A DNA stretch of 64,000 nucleotides from an uncultured Bacteroidales bacterium (GCA_963789985.1 CAWBNA010000019.1:400464-464463); one strand, 5' to 3'. Shown: positions 16,897-61,037, numbered from the stretch's first letter. Notes: generated by a model not told the origin, from the sequence alone. Made by a program: numbers and translations.

Positions 16897-19668
16897 TCAT
16901 TTACCGGCCTGTTCCTGAAACTCATATATATAATCACCCGACCCTTTACGGAACCCGGTACTTACCGGTAATTCATTCTCCCGGTCATTTCTTAATTCCC
17001 TGACCGTCACCAGCTCATCTTTGCGCGGGTTGAGAGGGGACCCGTTTTCAGTAACCTTTGAAAAATCATCAACGGGGAGTATCACTGTTGCAACCGTATT
17101 GACAGGGATACTTACCTTAACGACTATCTTCCCGTCCTTTCTTTCCCATCCCGATGAAATGGTGCCGTAAGGGCTGTCAAAAGAGGCTTTGGAATATTCA
17201 AGTTTTTTGGTAATCTGAGGATTGATCCTGAATTGCCTGTAACCGGGCTCCATGACTTCAATTCCTGCCGAAGACCTGTACATCCAGTCACCAATTGCCC
17301 CGTAAGCGTAATGGTTGAACGAGTTCATTCCTGAATCCTGGAATGTGCTGTCGGGCTTTTCACCGTCCCACCTTTCCCATATTGTTGTGGCACCCATTCT
17401 GACGGGATAAAGCCACGAGGGATATGTTTCCTGAAGCAGCAGGTCATATGCAACTTCAGAATATCCTTCCCTGGAAAGTACATGGCACAGGAAGGGAGTA
17501 CCGAGGAACCCGGTGGAAAGGTGGTTTCCCCTGCTCTTTATGTCTTCCACAAGATATTTTGCTGCCTTTTCTCTCAGATCATCAGGAAGAAGTTTGAATT
17601 GCAAGGCAAGTACGTAGGATGTCTGTGAATTTGTTCCTACTCTTCCGGCAGGTGTAACATATTCATTAATAAATACTTTCTTTATTTTTTCAAAAAGATC
17701 TGAATAAAACCTGGCATCGTCTGCTTTCCCGAGTTCCTTTGCTGCATCTGCCAGAATACTGGTGGAATAGGCAAAAAATGCCGTTGCGATGAAATCGTGT
17801 TCAGTATAGCCGTCCGGTTCGGTATGCTTATCTACAGGCGGGTGATAAAACAGCCAGTCACCATACTTGCTTCCACCTTTCCAGATATAGCTGTCACCTG
17901 CTTTTTTCCTGATATATTCAACCCATGCCTTCATGCCGGGATACTGGTTCTCCAGCAGTTTTTTGTCGCCATAAACCTGGTATATAGTCCATGGCACAAT
18001 AACTGCGACATCGCCCCATCCTGCTGACGGTACGGTAGTTGTTGAACCCTGTTTGTCAAGGATATCGGGAATGACATCGGGAACTTCACCGCCTGGTTTC
18101 TGATCAGCAGAGATATCCTTCAGCCATTTTGTAAAAAATGCTGAAACATCAAAATTAAATGCTGCTGTTCTGCTGAAGGCCTGTGCATCACCAGTCCACC
18201 CCAGACGTTCATCCCTTTGCGGACAGTCAGTTGGAACATCCACAAAGTTTCCCTTCTGGCCCCATTGAATATTATGCTGCAACCGGTTCAGAAGTGGATT
18301 TGAACATTCGAAGCTGCCGGTGACTTCCATATCAGAATGAACAACTATTCCCGTTATGTTATCCGCCGTCAGTTCTCCAGGAAAACCTTTGATTTCCACG
18401 TATCTGAAACCCATGAATGTAAACCGGGGCTCATATACCTCTTCCCCTGTGCCTGCAAGGGTATAGGTAAGCTGAGCTTTGGCTGAACGCAGGTTCTCAG
18501 TATAGAACTCTCCATACTTATCCAGCACTTCTGCATGGCGAATTGTAACGACTGTTCCTTTTGGCCCTGAGACCTTCAACCTGATCCATCCGACCATATT
18601 CTGGCCCAGATCAGCAACCAGGCTTCCCTTGAGAGTCCTGAAAATCCTCACTGGCTTTATTTCCTGAATCCTGCGCACTGCGGGTCCCTCCGTCGATATC
18701 AGGTTATCAAAGGAATAATTGCCTGTCCTGACATTTTTCCAGCCTGCATCGTTGAAACCGTTCAAATCCCATCCGGTAAGCTTTTTTGTAGCATCAAAGG
18801 TTTCACCGTTGTAGATATCGTTCATCCTTATAGCCCCGTCATTAATTCCTTTCCAGGTTTCATCGGTGGTAATCAGCGACTCGCTTCCGTCAGTATACCT
18901 GATTCTCATTTGCATGAGCAATCCAAGCCTCTTTCCATAAATGGCCCAGTTGTTGCCCCATGCAAGTGTGCCTCTGTACCATCCGTCACCAAGTACAGCT
19001 CCGACTGTGTTCGTTCCTTTTGTAAGCATCTGAGTGACATCAAATACTTGATACTGAAGCCTTTTAAGATAGGAAGTCCAGCCCGGTGTAAATACCTGGT
19101 CACCAACCTTCTTACCATTTATATGCAACTCATAGAAACCATGTGAAGTGACATACACCCTGGCCGATGCTATGCCTTTTGTAAGAGTGAATTCCTTTCT
19201 GAAATGTGGAGAAGGTGAGTAACGCATAGTATCTCCTTCAAGTTCAATCCATCCGGCTTTCCACCCTGAATGATCCAGAAGTCCTGTTTCCCAGTATGCA
19301 GTCCCGCTCCATTTTGATTCTTTTCCCCTGTTGTCCCATACTTTTACCTGCCAGTAATATCTCTGGCAAGGTTTCAGGGGTGAACCATTATAATCCACGA
19401 GGATTGACCGATTGGATATGACTTTCCCTGATTGCCAGACCATTCCTGAAGATGAGAATTTCGGATCAGCTGATACCTTTACGGAATATGCTTTCTGCAT
19501 TACATTTGATCCTGCAGCCTTAATTTTCCATGAAAGCCTGGGCTGCAGAGCATCGATTCCCAAAGGATTGCTTTTATGTTCGCATGTCAGATCATAAACC
19601 GACAGATCCTGAGAAAAAGAATATGTCGTAAAAAGCATAACTGCAATTATCAATTTAAGTGATTTCAT
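16897..19668 (-). CDS. alpha-L-rhamnosidase (GH78)
   Basis: 923 aa with a signal peptide and the catalytic-domain motif DCPQRDERLGWTGD typical of GH78. Confidence 0.9.
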   Translation of the reverse strand: MKSLKLIIAVMLFTTYSFSQDLSVYDLTCEHKSNPLGIDALQPRLSWKIKAAGSNVMQKAYSVKVSADPKFSSSGMVWQSGKVISNRSILVDYNGSPLKPCQRYYWQVKVWDNRGKESKWSGTAYWETGLLDHSGWKAGWIELEGDTMRYSPSPHFRKEFTLTKGIASARVYVTSHGFYELHINGKKVGDQVFTPGWTSYLKRLQYQVFDVTQMLTKGTNTVGAVLGDGWYRGTLAWGNNWAIYGKRLGLLMQMRIRYTDGSESLITTDETWKGINDGAIRMNDIYNGETFDATKKLTGWDLNGFNDAGWKNVRTGNYSFDNLISTEGPAVRRIQEIKPVRIFRTLKGSLVADLGQNMVGWIRLKVSGPKGTVVTIRHAEVLDKYGEFYTENLRSAKAQLTYTLAGTGEEVYEPRFTFMGFRYVEIKGFPGELTADNITGIVVHSDMEVTGSFECSNPLLNRLQHNIQWGQKGNFVDVPTDCPQRDERLGWTGDAQAFSRTAAFNFDVSAFFTKWLKDISADQKPGGEVPDVIPDILDKQGSTTTVPSAGWGDVAVIVPWTIYQVYGDKKLLENQYPGMKAWVEYIRKKAGDSYIWKGGSKYGDWLFYHPPVDKHTEPDGYTEHDFIATAFFAYSTSILADAAKELGKADDARFYSDLFEKIKKVFINEYVTPAGRVGTNSQTSYVLALQFKLLPDDLREKAAKYLVEDIKSRGNHLSTGFLGTPFLCHVLSREGYSEVAYDLLLQETYPSWLYPVRMGATTIWERWDGEKPDSTFQDSGMNSFNHYAYGAIGDWMYRSSAGIEVMEPGYRQFRINPQITKKLEYSKASFDSPYGTISSGWERKDGKIVVKVSIPVNTVATVILPVDDFSKVTENGSPLNPRKDELVTVRELRNDRENELPVSTGFRKGSGDYIYEFQEQAGK

Positions 19669-19766
19669 GTGTAAATAATTTTAATTTTAATGGTCACATG
19701 GAACCCACATGTTTGGAGAGGTATTTACATTTTTGTTTGTGTCTGGATAGAATGTGGGTTTCATAT
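19662..19766 (-). repeat. ~100-nt conserved leader element, copy A (upstream of GH78 gene)
   Basis: About 8 mismatches per 100 nt against 58386-58490 by eye. Contains an 11-bp inverted repeat (19700-19710 / 19752-19762, one G-T pair). Confidence 0.85.
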
Positions 19767-19782
19767 TATGAATTTTAGGTGC

Positions 19783-19817
19783 GATAAAATTGAATTTGAA
19801 ATTTATCCAATTTTATC
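19783..19817. promoter_or_regulatory. 10-bp perfect inverted repeat in the divergent GH78/rhaT control region (candidate operator)
   Basis: GATAAAATTG (19783-19792) and CAATTTTATC (19808-19817), separated by 15 nt. Confidence 0.35.
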
Positions 19818-19888
19818 TGATTTGGGAAAAGTAAAATGACTAATTTTATAATCTTTGTTTAAAATTGGAAGTTTTGACATCTCAGTAA

Positions 19889-21271: not shown

Positions 21272-21297
21272 AAAATCAAAATTATTTACACATGAAA
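21272..21297 (+). promoter_or_regulatory. 26-nt start-proximal motif AAAATCAAAATTATTTACACATGAAA shared with leader copies A and B
   Basis: Exact 26/26 match to the reverse complement of 58387-58412, and 25/26 to the copy A equivalent. Includes the rhaA ATG. Confidence 0.7.
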
Positions 21298-57658: not shown

Positions 57659-57755
57659 TAATTAACCCACCCCTTCCCGATAGCTATCGGGACCCTCCTA
57701 GAAGGGGATCTCTGTACCCAGGCCTTTTTACTTTTGTCTTTTGCCTTTTGTCTTT
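57659..57755. repeat. third copy of the composite element, with a nested 16-bp perfect palindrome
   Basis: TAATTAACCCACCCCTTC ... GAAGGGG ... TTTTTACTTTTGTCTTTTGCCTTTTGTCTTT. The inserted CCCGATAGCTATCGGG lies at 57676-57691. The copy lies between the convergent asnB and DUF4097 genes. Confidence 0.9.
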
Positions 57756-58392
57756 ATTCAGATTTTCTGAAGAATATATCTCCGCTGATCGTTGCAAGTT
57801 TTATTAACGGGCCGCCATTGTTAAGCTTCTCCCTGAAATCTGAAGAATGTCCTGAAGGCATTGAGTTTGATGATAGTGTATGATTTGTAAAAACACTCCC
57901 TTTGATTGTTGAAAACTCCAGGTCGGCATTTTCTGAACCCGGAACTGCAAGATCGATGAAACCACTTATTGTGTTTACTTTCATTGCCGAAGTCTTACCC
58001 TCAATTGTTATATCCCCGTTAATTGTTTCTACTGAAAATTCAGTTTCAGCAGGTATATAAATTTCCCATCTTATATCGGATTTGGTGCAGCAGTTATTCT
58101 TTTTATCCTGCTTATAGTCTTTTTTAAAGCCAGCTCTTATCTCAGCAGTTTTTCCTGATTCCCCGAACGAGATCTGATATGCATCATTATCCTTATTTTC
58201 ATTTATGTTAACTGATGCAATGGCGTAAATCTCATTCTTGTTCCATGTCCGGATAGTTATTGAGTCAGCTATCTGAATATTCATCTCAATTGATTCCTTT
58301 CCGGAGAAGTCAATGTGCTTTTCGGTTGTTACCTGGGCATTTGCTGAAGCAAGGCACAGCCAGGTTGCAAAGAAAATTGCAATACATTTCAT
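57754..58392 (-). CDS. DUF4097-like putative adhesin/beta-helix protein
   Basis: 212 aa with a signal peptide and repeated SG.I motifs (INGDITIEG, ISGFIDL, IKGSVF, ISGDIFF). Confidence 0.6.
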   Translation of the reverse strand: MKCIAIFFATWLCLASANAQVTTEKHIDFSGKESIEMNIQIADSITIRTWNKNEIYAIASVNINENKDNDAYQISFGESGKTAEIRAGFKKDYKQDKKNNCCTKSDIRWEIYIPAETEFSVETINGDITIEGKTSAMKVNTISGFIDLAVPGSENADLEFSTIKGSVFTNHTLSSNSMPSGHSSDFREKLNNGGPLIKLATISGDIFFRKSE

Positions 58393-58490
58393 GTGTAAAT
58401 AATTTTGATTTTAACGGTCACATGGAACCCACATGTTTGGAGAGACATTTACATTCTTGTTTGTGTTTGGATAACATGTGGGTTTCATAA
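58386..58490 (-). repeat. ~100-nt conserved leader element, copy B (upstream of DUF4097 gene)
   Basis: Same element abutting start codon 58392. Inverted-repeat arms at 58424-58434 and 58476-58486. Confidence 0.85.
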
Positions 58491-58539
58491 TTAAGATTTA
58501 AATTGTTATTAATTCAAATTAAGCAGGGAAGGAAGGGAA

Positions 58540-59316
58540 TCAGTTACCCTTCCTGATGTAAACATTACCGCTGACCGTCGAAATACTGACTTTTGGCCCT
58601 CCACCATTAAGTAAATAGGTAAGCTCATTCCCGACCACCTTTTTCATATTATCCTTTGCCTCGGTAAAATCGAAATCGGAATAAAAGGATCCGCCAACCG
58701 TCCTGAGTTCGAGGCTTGCTGCAGTTTTTGCAGGAAGTGTAATGTCGATTTCGCCGCTTATTGCATTTATTGATACTGGTTTGTCAGGTATGCCGCTGAA
58801 AGTAATATTTACGTTTCCGCTGATTGTTGAAAGAACAAGGGGACCTGTAACATTTTTAAGATCAATTCCCTGGCAAGTCTTAACATCAATTTCATTCTTC
58901 ATGCCTGCAACAGAAATACTGCTTGCCCTCTCGCAGCCGCTCTCAATTTCAAGGGCCAGGTTATCCGGTACCTTTATTTTATAGTCGGCACTTTTTGTGA
59001 TCGGAAGCATACAGGTGACCGAAATTTCGTTACCGTTTTTCTCCACATCGAGCCCCAGCCCGGAATTATCATTACCGCCGGGGTAAATAGGCCTTAATCC
59101 CTTAGCTCTCTCTGGCGGTGTAAAGTCACCATTTGGGGATGTGATTATGATTTCGTTCCCGCTGTATCCTTCAATGGGCAGATCATGGGTGAAATTTTTC
59201 AGAATGAGCTTGCTGTCCTTTGTGTTCTGAACGGTCAGCTTGTATTCCTGACCCGCTGCTATTCCTGCCGAAAGCAGGAAACCCAAAACCAACATGTTTA
59301 TTTTAATCGCTTTCAT
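58540..59316 (-). CDS. DUF4097-like putative adhesin/beta-helix protein
   Basis: Start moved to ATG 59316 (MKAIKINMLVLGF). Repeated ISGNVNI, ISGEIDI and VSGNVYI motifs. Confidence 0.6.
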   Translation of the reverse strand: MKAIKINMLVLGFLLSAGIAAGQEYKLTVQNTKDSKLILKNFTHDLPIEGYSGNEIIITSPNGDFTPPERAKGLRPIYPGGNDNSGLGLDVEKNGNEISVTCMLPITKSADYKIKVPDNLALEIESGCERASSISVAGMKNEIDVKTCQGIDLKNVTGPLVLSTISGNVNITFSGIPDKPVSINAISGEIDITLPAKTAASLELRTVGGSFYSDFDFTEAKDNMKKVVGNELTYLLNGGGPKVSISTVSGNVYIRKGN

Positions 59317-59400
59317 AACTTCATTTTTTTTTGTTTTATAACTTTCCAGGCAAACCCGGTATTCACCTGAACTATTTATTATTGAATTCAATTTCTATAT

Positions 59401-60198
59401 TCATATAAGCTGTTTAACACCGCTCTCGGCAACTGATTTTACTTCTTTCAAAGTCCGGTCGTCTGATATGATCTTCCGGATGGGTTCAACAGCACTCTTT
59501 TCCCTTAATTCAACAAGAATATTTATCAGTGTGACCTGCAGGATTGGATCAGTCTGACCGGGCAATGATTTTACAAGCGAGTCGCGGACATATTGCCTGT
59601 CAGTATATTTTTCGAGGGCATAAGCTGCTGCCATCCTCACGTTTACATTCTTATCGCCGTTAAGTGTCACAAGCAGTGCATTAATAACATTTTCATCAGG
59701 CTTGTCCATTTCATCTGCATAATTGACTGCCTGGATCCTGTAGCTCGACGATCCGTCTTTCAGCATTGTGAACATGGCTGTTTTGCGCAGTGCATTTACT
59801 TCTGACTTCAGCTGGCTGAGCTCCTTCTCCTGTCCCGAACCTGAAATACCTGAATAGATGAGTACGCCAAGGAAAGATCCTGTGATCAATATGGCAATTG
59901 CAGCTGCGATCCTAAAGATTGTACGATCGTACCAGAGTAGCCTCTCGGGTTTTACATCCATGCTGCCAGCCTTTCTGATCTCATTGTGAAGCATGTGATA
60001 AAAATTGATGTGCATTGAATCATCAGGAGTCTCCATTTCCTTCGACGAAATGAGTTGCATAATATGCTGCATTTCCATCATCTCATCAAGGCATCTCTCA
60101 CATGTTTCAAGATGCTTCTCAATTTCAGCCTTTTTATCACTTTCCAGCTTATTGTCAAGGTAATCGATCATTAAGCTCTCTGCTTCTTCACATTTCAT
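59401..60198 (-). CDS. anti-sigma factor (zf-HC2) with TM and extracytoplasmic HEAT-like repeats
   Basis: 265 aa with an N-terminal zinc-finger pattern MKCEEAE...HLETCERC, a central TM IAAAIAILITGSFLGVLIY and a C-terminal helical-repeat region (VRMAAAYALEKY). Confidence 0.7.
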   Translation of the reverse strand: MKCEEAESLMIDYLDNKLESDKKAEIEKHLETCERCLDEMMEMQHIMQLISSKEMETPDDSMHINFYHMLHNEIRKAGSMDVKPERLLWYDRTIFRIAAAIAILITGSFLGVLIYSGISGSGQEKELSQLKSEVNALRKTAMFTMLKDGSSSYRIQAVNYADEMDKPDENVINALLVTLNGDKNVNVRMAAAYALEKYTDRQYVRDSLVKSLPGQTDPILQVTLINILVELREKSAVEPIRKIISDDRTLKEVKSVAESGVKQLI

Positions 60199-60209
60199 AT
60201 CTGTTTCTT

Positions 60210-60752
60210 TTAAATCTGTTTCGCAAAAATAAATCTCAGCTGCCTTATTGCCCTGAAAGTTGACACTTTCACAGCTGTAACAGATTGCCCGGTTATTGCA
60301 GCTATTTCAATGTATTTCAAACCCTGGTAACGGCTGAGTACAATTATTTCCCTTTGTGCCTCATTAAGCTCCATAAGTGCACGGTCGAGTTTTTCATAAT
60401 CCTCTTCAGGATAATTTTCAGGTTCCTCAGGTACTTCGGCATGATAATATTCAGTCTGCGAAAAGAGATCATCATTTTTTTTCTGCTGAATACGGTAATC
60501 AGTGTGAATGTTCCTTGCAATCTGGTATATCCATGATTTAACTGAATTCCCGGCTTTATAGGATTGTCTGTACTTGATCATCCTATAAAACAGGTTTTGT
60601 GTAAGATCCTGGCTGATATCCCTTGTAAGCCCCATCTTCAGAAAGAAATTGAAGAGCCTTACATTGTATCTTTCAAAAATAACCGACATCCTGGCAAGGT
60701 TACCGTCTCTTATCTCAGTCATAATTGTTTCGTCGGGAATATTTTCCGTCAT
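60210..60752 (-). CDS. ECF-type RNA polymerase sigma-70 factor
   Basis: Start moved to ATG 60752 (MTENIPDE). Region 2 (SWIYQIARNIHTDY) and region 4 (VLSRYQGLKYIEIAAITGQSVTAVKVSTFRA). Confidence 0.85.
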   Translation of the reverse strand: MTENIPDETIMTEIRDGNLARMSVIFERYNVRLFNFFLKMGLTRDISQDLTQNLFYRMIKYRQSYKAGNSVKSWIYQIARNIHTDYRIQQKKNDDLFSQTEYYHAEVPEEPENYPEEDYEKLDRALMELNEAQREIIVLSRYQGLKYIEIAAITGQSVTAVKVSTFRAIRQLRFIFAKQI

Positions 60753-61037
60753 TTTTCTCCGGTTTCTGTAATGATTACCTGTAAAGTTAAAAATGGTTAC
60801 AGAAAAAATCCGAAGAAATGTAATATTTATCGGTATTCTCAAACAACTTTACCCGAAACAGACTATTTTTATTTTTATTTCTCATTTTTTATGATAACCG
60901 GAGTCATAAAGAAAAACCTAATCCCTTCTGAAGATTTCATATTCGGATTTGCTTACCTGCATGGACTGATCAATAAAAGATTCTGAACAATAATATGTTA
61001 TCATTTAAAACAAAATCATCAAAAATATTCTAAAAAC

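Follow-up and report, generated by a model that had tools for sequence, protein, structure and literature searches.

Two blocks of about 100 nt that precede unrelated genes in a 64,000-nt stretch of DNA from an uncultured Bacteroidales bacterium (C19:400464-464463 of a 5.1-Mb assembly with 40% G+C; this whole stretch is called the window, and positions are counted from its first letter) are probably copies of a gene-less miniature mobile element. The window has two full copies and one 5'-truncated copy, and the element appears to insert at ATGAAA gene starts and to move as a single-stranded DNA (ssDNA) circle. We give this reading a probability of about 0.7. Recent insertions of one mobile element would account for the similarity of the blocks, and the genes need not be regulated together.

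The first-pass annotation had described the two stretches as similar leaders of unrelated genes, and a BLAST-type alignment gave 90.4% identity across 114 nt. By Pfam the downstream genes are indeed unrelated, one being a GH78 rhamnosidase (16897-19668, minus strand) and the other a DUF4097 protein (57754-58392, minus strand). Both leaders have the orientation of their gene and continue into its ATG. The statement that they end at the ATG was right in that they reach it, but the shared block also takes in the start and the second codon (ATGAAA), and it opens with another ATGAAA. The inverted repeat, given as 11 bp, is real but longer; ATGAAACCCACATG pairs with CATGTGGGTTCCAT over 14 positions with one conserved A.C mismatch, across a spacer of 39 nt. 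The 26-mer AAAATCAAAATTATTTACACATGAAA has three matches in the window as claimed (0, 0 and 1 mismatch, against 0 expected from 100 shuffles), and the third site is the rhaA start at 21292. Copy A, a 96-nt insertion unit that begins with the first ATGAAA and ends immediately before the present GH78 ATG, lies at 19669-19764 (minus strand; nhmmer match C19:420228-420127). Copy B lies at 58393-58488 (minus strand; nhmmer match C19:458952-458851), at the start of the second of two DUF4097 genes, and is 90% identical to copy A.

Sister species, defined as members of the same GTDB genus, had empty sites at the orthologous positions. The kdpB-kdpC junction reads '...gagattatt ATGAAAACACAAACG' in two of them (G007 and G010) and '...gagattatT ATGAAA cccacat...tttacac ATGAAAACACAAACG' in the host genome. 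GH78 orthologues of 11 sister species have the gene start ATGAAATC and lack the element; in this empty counterpart of copy A the conserved upstream block directly abuts ATGAAATCA. Several of these genes are preceded by the block ...gataaaaatagataaatttcaaa..., which abuts the left ATGAAA of the element in the host genome. In six sister species the DUF4097 gene is also free of the element, and 35-50 nt of spacer separate its start (ATGAAA in five, ATGAGA in one) from the stop of the preceding DUF4097 gene. Likewise, aroQ orthologues begin ATGAAAAT without the element, and the rhaM-rhaA spacers of eight sister species have no 20-nt tail. The left ATGAAA is therefore the native start, joined to native upstream DNA, and the right ATGAAA continues into the gene body. 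In net terms 96 nt have been inserted, with ATGAAA on both flanks. The empty and filled sites at kdpC, GH78 and DUF4097 show a fixed short target, a single orientation and no duplication of further host bases.

The copies were searched for across the host genome with BLAST and iterated nhmmer. The 'three places' of the first-pass annotation proved to be a small part of the total, as nhmmer found 23 copies in the 5.1-Mb genome and two more, at rhaA and ilvN, consist of the tail only (~25 in total). The genes that follow them are unrelated: DUF4097, kdpC, an ASPIC/UnbV-like gene, M13 and S9 peptidases, GH78, GH3, a thioredoxin-like gene, aroQ, ilvN, rhaA and a HlyD-type gene. The main subfamily has 13 full-length copies, twelve of which are of equal length and 84-96% identical pairwise, and a second subfamily with a different loop has three. 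Truncation affected the 5' end in seven copies and the 3' end in one. Every copy with an intact right end terminates ...ATG(A/G)A, and the terminal ATG opens a long open reading frame (ORF) in ~20 of the 25. Two further copies have a gene ~105 nt downstream that shares their orientation, and all copies inspected share the orientation of the downstream gene. Their left flanks show the A-rich start context that is usual in the host genome. Some lie within operons, namely between kdpB and kdpC, ilvB and ilvN, and two DUF4097 genes.

ATGAAA occurs 9308 times in the genome, 906 times at crude gene starts and 1452 times in non-coding DNA. With only 906 of 9308 occurrences at crude gene starts, the presence of ~80% of the copies at starts is a strong enrichment. 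The association with start codons goes far beyond what the hexamer alone would give, and also beyond what purging of coding insertions alone would give. The possibility that the block was a common dispersed repeat, indifferent to start codons, was thus half right: it is a dispersed repeat, but its orientation and its distance to start codons are strict. GC skew in the host genome was weak and noisy and replichores could not be assigned from it; the skew of the element strand was positive for 11 copies and negative for 14.

The anatomy of the element was derived from 121 distinct copies from ~60 genomes, of which 63 sequences made up alignment A2. The 5' part reads [N] ATGAAACCCACATG, then a loop of ~40 nt with a ACACAAACA core, then CATGTGGGTTCCAT and a triplet NNN. 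The 3' part reads ACC(A/T)TTAAAATCAAAATTAT(A/T)TA(C), then a triplet N'N'N' and ATGAAA. The arms are almost invariant, which is partly due to the construction of the sample, and a few divergent members, L015 and L023 among them, have compensated arm changes as judged by eye. The tail TTAAAA..AAATTAT is at least 90% conserved in A2. The second codon is AAA in 109 of the 121 copies, and the flanking repeat is always ATGAA(A), which indicates a specific target or core and not a generic duplication.

All features of copies A and B are on the minus strand. In copy A, arm 1 (ATGAAACCCACATT, 19751-19764; near-invariant among the 63 diverse copies) begins with the left ATGAAA (ATG1, 19759-19764), which is the native GH78 start position by sequence and by comparison with the empty sites. 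Arm 2 (CATGTGGGTTCCAT, 19698-19711) contains the 'anti-start' TTCCAT. Directly 3' of it lies the triplet NNN, here GTG (19695-19697), which pairs with the triplet N'N'N', here CAC (19669-19671), at -3 to -1 of the ATG. Between them, the A/T-rich tail ACCATTAAAATTAAAATTATTTA (19672-19694), as delimited in A2, is now the proximal leader of the gene. The right ATGAAA (ATG2, 19663-19668) is the present GH78 start and second codon according to the ORF at 16897-19668 and its Pfam GH78 domains. Copy B has the same plan, with arm 1 (ATGAAACCCACATG) at 58475-58488 including its ATG1 (58486-58488), arm 2 (CATGTGGGTTCCAT) at 58422-58435, and GTG (58419-58421) paired with CAC (58393-58395). Its right ATGAAA (58387-58392) is the present DUF4097 start, by the ORF at 57754-58392 and Pfam.

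In 96 of 121 copies, the triplet that follows TTCCAT and the one that precedes the ATG are exact reverse complements. Ten triplet types occur, GTG/CAC being that of the host genome, with CAG/CTG, CAT/ATG, CCG/CGG, CTG/CAG, ACG/CGT, TAT/ATA, AAT/ATT and GCG/CGC among those found elsewhere. In A2 the pairs 74-105, 75-104 and 76-103 show 16, 27 and 19 double changes. The covariation score was 0.176 compared with 0.045 in shuffles; it was reached by 0 of 500 shuffles and collapsed once the partners were slid. The first-pass annotation had named the 11-bp stem as the place to test for compensatory changes. That stem is near-invariant, and such changes are found instead in its 3-bp extension, which pairs with the bases before the ATG.

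Such covariation requires base pairing and so points to a single-stranded form. In the linear form, RNA folding places the two triplets in a small helix, CAUNNN : N'N'N'AUG, which contains the start codon. When the ends of the element are joined, be it in an excised circle or where two copies meet in tandem, the sequence at the right end-left end (RE-LE) junction becomes ...TTATTTACAC followed directly by ATGAAACCCACATG..., and N'N'N'-ATGAAACCCACATG pairs continuously with CATGTGGGTTCCAT-NNN. Folded as junction-permuted ssDNA, all four subfamilies folded (4/4) gave one stem of ~18 bp with the single conserved A.C mismatch, closed by the ~40-nt loop and by an A/T loop of ~24 nt. The z scores of these folds were -2.7 to -4.9, and 0 of 200 shuffles were as stable. 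This mismatch, A.C when the sense strand is read, corresponds to G.T on the bottom strand (62 of 63 sequences). On the bottom strand the whole stem and the pairing to the target TTTCAT would be complete, which is a hint, and no more, that this is the active strand.

Of 41 related genomes, 23 have the family; the scored copies per genome run from 0 to 21 or more, and among congeners the copy number ranges from 0 to more than 20. Full-length copies of the main subfamily in the host genome match the query consensus at 92-99% identity and the best copy from another species at 88% at most, and each species has its own subfamilies. Such patchy, lineage-specific copies form the pattern of a mobile non-autonomous element and not that of a conserved regulatory leader. 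A search of GTDB species genomes by exact pattern placed the element on at least 120 contigs, nearly all of them from metagenome-assembled genomes of uncultured Bacteroidales. At four loci (L010, L073, L095 and L162) copies form tandem stacks, in which the newer copy sits exactly at the right-hand ATGAAA of the resident copy. For uncultured Bacteroidales of digesters and sediments, the copies offer markers of recent genome change that are specific to a lineage.

No published description of the element was found, and the sequence of its arms was absent from the literature searched; for miniature inverted-repeat transposable elements (MITEs) of Bacteroidetes, only unrelated Porphyromonas elements were returned. 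Small non-autonomous hairpin elements are already known. The start-codon target, the regenerated codon and the covarying joined-end stem were not found in the literature searched. Inserting at the start codon itself and regenerating it is an unusual means of sparing the host gene. The covarying junction stem is sequence-level evidence of a single-stranded circular intermediate, in a family for which no transposase was found.

Three side observations concern copies in this wider set. In the host genome, a copy of the CCG/CGG subfamily and one of the GTG/CAG subfamily lie 150 nt apart upstream of one 873-aa gene (C15:182211-182559), separated by a 62-codon ORF of doubtful reality; the pair records successive insertions at one gene start. 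Two IMG/VR contigs, both predicted to be viral (L223 7500-7600 and L224 6289-6390), carry an identical copy before a 112-aa ORF (MKQKTYIQLSLFNES...), and phages or prophages may ferry the element between hosts. In some copies of other genomes (L013 ~1501-1623, L105, L124 and L144) a second small G+C hairpin of the CCCGCTTGAGCGGG type, ~20 nt long, occurs at a fixed point just after GGGTTC of arm 2 and is either a nested mini-insertion or a distinct subfamily.

How the element moves may be pictured as follows. Movement would most likely proceed via a single-stranded circular intermediate. In the excised circle the joined ends would form the continuous ~18-bp stem with a loop at either end, which gives the shape of a dumbbell. 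Recognition of the target ATGAAA probably relies on its pairing with the internal TTCCAT, in the manner of the guides of the IS200/IS605 family, and the mobilising enzyme would be supplied in trans. In IS608, guide sequences beside the hairpin pair with the cleavage site (PMC3201880). In our element, TTCCAT-NNN could pair with the ATGAAA at either end, and it covaries with N'N'N', in a geometry unlike that of IS608.

Like the IS200/IS605 elements and the PATEs, gene-less elements derived from them, which are moved by a Y1 HUH transposase, TnpA, by 'peel and paste' through an ssDNA circle, the element is small, has no terminal inverted repeats at both tips and has a hairpin as its main structural feature. 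It inserts in one orientation at a fixed, short, asymmetric target and duplicates only what it carries itself, and its covariation implies a single-stranded intermediate. As in IS608, an internal sequence is complementary to the end and the target, like a guide and its cleavage site (PMC3201880). Unlike these elements, it has a 6-nt target (ATGAAA) that coincides with start codons. No cognate TnpA was identified for it, the presence of Y1 genes does not track its copy number, and it has no TnpB/omega-RNA partner. Its membership of the IS200/IS605 family is not established.

The insertion leaves the native promoter, leader and ATG1 untouched. ATG1 opens an upstream open reading frame (uORF), which in the host genome has 25 codons and a stop codon that begins 21 nt before ATG2. 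In copy A it is at 19687-19764 (minus strand) and encodes MKPTFYPDTNKNVNTSPNMWVPCDH before the stop; in copy B it is at 58411-58488 (minus strand) and encodes MKPTCYPNTNKNVNVSPNMWVPCDR. As 96 = 32 x 3, the uORF and the gene share a reading frame. Of the 13 full copies of the host genome, 11 keep the uORF intact despite their 4-16% divergence. Its stop falls within -21 to +1 of ATG2 in ~60% of the 121 copies, and in 37, including the largest foreign subfamilies, it overlaps the gene start as UGAUG. Substitutions in the uORF are mostly non-synonymous, so any role of it would lie in translation and not in the peptide. Hairpin 1 is not followed by a U-tract and is therefore unlikely to be a transcription terminator. 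To our knowledge, Bacteroidota do not use Shine-Dalgarno sequences.

Transcription would thus still come from the native promoter. Ribosomes that start at the native ATG would translate the uORF through the hairpin, stop 21 nt before the new ATG or overlapping it, and might restart there. It is plausible that such termination-reinitiation coupling keeps the gene under its native translational control, and coupling would explain the tolerance of copies inside operons. The insertion would then be nearly harmless, which together with the loss of frame-breaking insertions inside genes would explain the survivors at gene starts. The dozens of constructs of the form 'native start, uORF, new start' are a test set for re-initiation and for leader sequence requirements in Bacteroidota. 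Annotation of start codons at such loci should allow for two candidate ATGAAA sites 96 nt apart.

Several observations weigh against the reading as a mobile element with an ssDNA circle. The search for an autonomous relative with the same ends found no arm pairs 0.3-4 kb apart in the host genome, in the complete-level genome G004 or at ~170 loci. Y1 transposase genes are present in 38 of the 41 relatives, including four species of the same genus with zero copies, and no Y1 transposase was found in G021, which has 23 or more copies. TnpB (PF07282) is absent from all 25 genomes of the genus, IscB not having been searched for. The integron integrase (TIGR02249) scored above its cut-off in 0 of 41 genomes; the best match had 125 bits against a cut-off of 265, and only generic tyrosine recombinases were found. 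The structure also departs from that of IS200/IS605 elements, which have two subterminal hairpins. Here, there is one hairpin made of the left tip and an internal segment; the second helix shares a strand with it, and there is no subterminal hairpin at each end. The guide-like TTCCAT-NNN, unlike the guides of IS608, lies 3' of the hairpin and would have to act as a single guide for both ends. As copies of a subfamily share descent, the independent compensatory events number ~10 and not ~100, all ten of which keep the pairing. Neither a circle nor an excision product was observed. Polymorphism of the insertion within the species was not found by exact-protein look-up, and other assemblies with the DUF4097 gene keep the same layout and spacing. 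Finally, the uORF has only 4-13 codons in ~20% of copies.

The Y1 (PF01797) search gave five hits in the host genome, where stand-alone Y1 genes are ~150 aa long (one, at C3:44141-44614, has 157 aa). The flanks of its four Y1 genes had no element-like sequence, the only resemblance being a chance 9-mer where the Y1 gene on contig C3 starts ATGAAACCC; unrelated repeats of other kinds surround these genes. As a separate observation, this region (C3:43990-45600) has an intact IS200-like Y1 gene embedded in other repeats of 100-350 nt that are 92-99% identical at 8 or more loci and have relatives on contigs C13, C39, C14, C15 and C22. These repeats are a different family, possibly REPtron-like, that is unrelated to the element.

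The element shares some features with other small repeats. Like the repetitive extragenic palindromic sequences (REPs) and their BIME and REPIN assemblies with RAYT (TnpA-REP), it is short, palindromic, high-copy, non-coding and lineage-specific, and REPs are possibly mobilised by a domesticated Y1 enzyme (PMC3333891). REPs, however, are 20-40 nt long, lie mostly after genes or between convergent genes, are not tied to start codons in any fixed way and cluster as REPtrons about the RAYT gene, whereas the element has 96 nt, abuts the 5' starts of genes and has no copy that flanks a Y1 gene in the host genome. Correia elements of Neisseria, which are MITEs, resemble it in being ~100-150 nt long, gene-less, dispersed and co-transcribed with their neighbours, in being able to alter expression, and in differing in copy number between related genomes. 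In contrast to the element, they and other DDE-derived MITEs have inverted repeats at both termini, duplicate a short generic TA and insert in either orientation. Arm 1 of the element is terminal, arm 2 lies ~32 nt inside the right end, only one orientation is found and the target is a start codon.

Like the attC sites of integrons, the element has an imperfect hairpin, the base of which becomes complete only once a circle brings the ends together, as well as arms of the form ....AAC / GTT.... (ATGAAAC / GTTCCAT in the element), a conserved unpaired position in the stem and a folded single-stranded substrate. Unlike integron cassettes, it occurs in genomes without IntI, attI or a cassette array, contains no ORF and is scattered at gene starts. 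Rickettsia palindromic elements are also small palindromic mobile repeats that survive by compatibility with host-gene expression. They lie in frame inside the coding sequence and are translated, whereas our element sits at the start codon and brings an in-frame stop and a new start.

A stronger version of the mobile-element reading makes it a new class of start-codon-homing element, with the anti-start TTCCAT, an ssDNA dumbbell circle of ~96 nt, an enzyme other than the Y1 TnpA, TnpB and IntI that were tracked, and insertions that are translationally 'transparent'. We consider this version doubtful. Under it, the bottom-strand ATGGAA would pair fully with TTTCAT through one G.T wobble and so find the commonest gene start of Bacteroidota. 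The native start would drive the uORF, and termination would hand ribosomes to the start supplied by the element, which the same pairing would otherwise mask. If true, transposition would here use a chemistry or a partner that is new, and the element would be a natural module that adds sequence at gene starts without silencing.

The mobile-element reading is also compatible with a second use of the helix CAUNNN : N'N'N'AUG, in which the element is mobile but the helix is kept for a role in the mRNA, masking ATG2 until a ribosome that translates the uORF melts it, so that the native initiation region would go on controlling translation of the host gene. RNA folding gave hairpin 1 and a 6-bp helix with AUG2 in three of the four copies folded, both full window copies included. 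The helix covaries, the uORF crosses its 5' strand in most copies, and the UGAUG ends, the uORFs kept open in the host genome and the copies tolerated inside the operons named above would all suit such a role. The same pairs are, however, explained more economically as hairpin 1 continued across the joined ends. The helix is weak, with 6 bp closing a loop of ~24 nt, the length and frame of the uORF vary by subfamily down to the short forms already mentioned, and the openness of the uORF in the host genome is not clearly above chance. Such a second use seems to us unlikely, if not to be dismissed.

Spread through an RNA intermediate, in the manner of short interspersed nuclear elements (SINEs), is considerably less probable. 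By this route the element would be transcribed together with host genes, reverse transcription would be primed where its 3' AUGAAA pairs with a nicked TTTCAT, and ATGAAA microhomology would join the other end. The excess of 5' truncations over 3' truncations (7 vs 1 in the host genome), the ATGAAA at both junctions and the constant sense orientation relative to the transcribed gene agree with it, and the covariation suits RNA as well as ssDNA. But selection explains the 5' truncations equally, since the 3' part holds the start and leader of the gene and cannot be lost. No reverse transcriptase was linked to the element, though none was sought. We know of no SINE-like retro-element of such kind in bacteria. 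Two 5'-truncated copies (C4:154711-154746 and C15:75671-75703) have the same junction, in which ATG is followed directly by ACCATTAAAATC... (ATG/ACCATT). It would fit a deletion of hairpin 1 by slippage between TGA microhomologies, which speaks against the RNA route, or else the hairpin-less short form may itself spread.

Of the explanations offered at first pass, a portable promoter or leader cassette came nearest, as the DNA is portable and gives the gene the last ~30 nt of its leader and its start codon. A cassette that spreads by bringing a promoter to downstream genes is very unlikely. Homologous upstream DNA before non-homologous genes is indeed the operational definition of putative mobile promoters, and the GH78 copy lies in a divergent promoter region. 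However, the sense strand of the consensus has no Bacteroidetes -7 motif TAnnTTTG, which makes it unlikely that a promoter comes with the element; several copies are internal to an operon (kdpC, ilvN, DUF4097), where a promoter is not needed, and the native upstream region is retained intact. We also considered two related ideas and rejected them. For an antisense promoter, the only near-match was TAATTTTG on the bottom strand of the tail, the G of which is not conserved across subfamilies in A2. For an invertible promoter in the 39-nt loop, the segment is far too short, and no variants in inverted orientation were seen.

Least credible of all is a conserved cis-regulatory RNA leader or an operator of co-regulated rhamnose-related genes, which the first-pass annotation had proposed since two of the three window genes are rhamnose genes, and which the strict position relative to the start codon and the covarying helix with the AUG might also suggest: genome-wide, the downstream genes are functionally unrelated, the element is absent at the GH78, rhaA, DUF4097 and kdpC orthologues of sister species, loop positions free of structural constraint are 84-96% identical within the genome, which indicates recent copying, and congeners differ in copy number over the range given above. 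Rfam gave no match on the whole window at gathering thresholds, and for the element at permissive E-values only chance hits to miRNA hairpins far below threshold. Identical 'leaders' before unrelated Bacteroidales genes should not be taken as regulons, riboswitches or operators.

Copy C is the 5'-truncated copy of the window (21272-21297, plus strand; an exact match to the 26-mer). It consists of the last 20 nt of the tail and ATGAAA, lies in the 50-nt rhaM-rhaA spacer and supplies the rhaA start. In another genome (G001), the rhaM-rhaA spacer (L199) has ...TTAAAATCAACAAAATAAAAATTACATCTATGAAA before rhaA, beside a different G+C-rich repeat, and this may be a decayed tail of the same element family.

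Copy B separates the two genes for Toastrack DUF4097 proteins in an operon (57754-60842, minus strand) that also encodes an ECF sigma factor and a zf-HC2/HEAT anti-sigma factor. The divergent spacer between GH78 and rhaT has an AT-rich block at 19790-19860 (in the GH78 sense ...agtcattttac...gataaaattggataaatttcaaa...), which is kept in position and sequence ahead of the GH78 gene of several sister species (L190, L191, L194 and L195). This block, which is separate from the mobile element, is a candidate operator or promoter that the divergent rhamnose genes would share.

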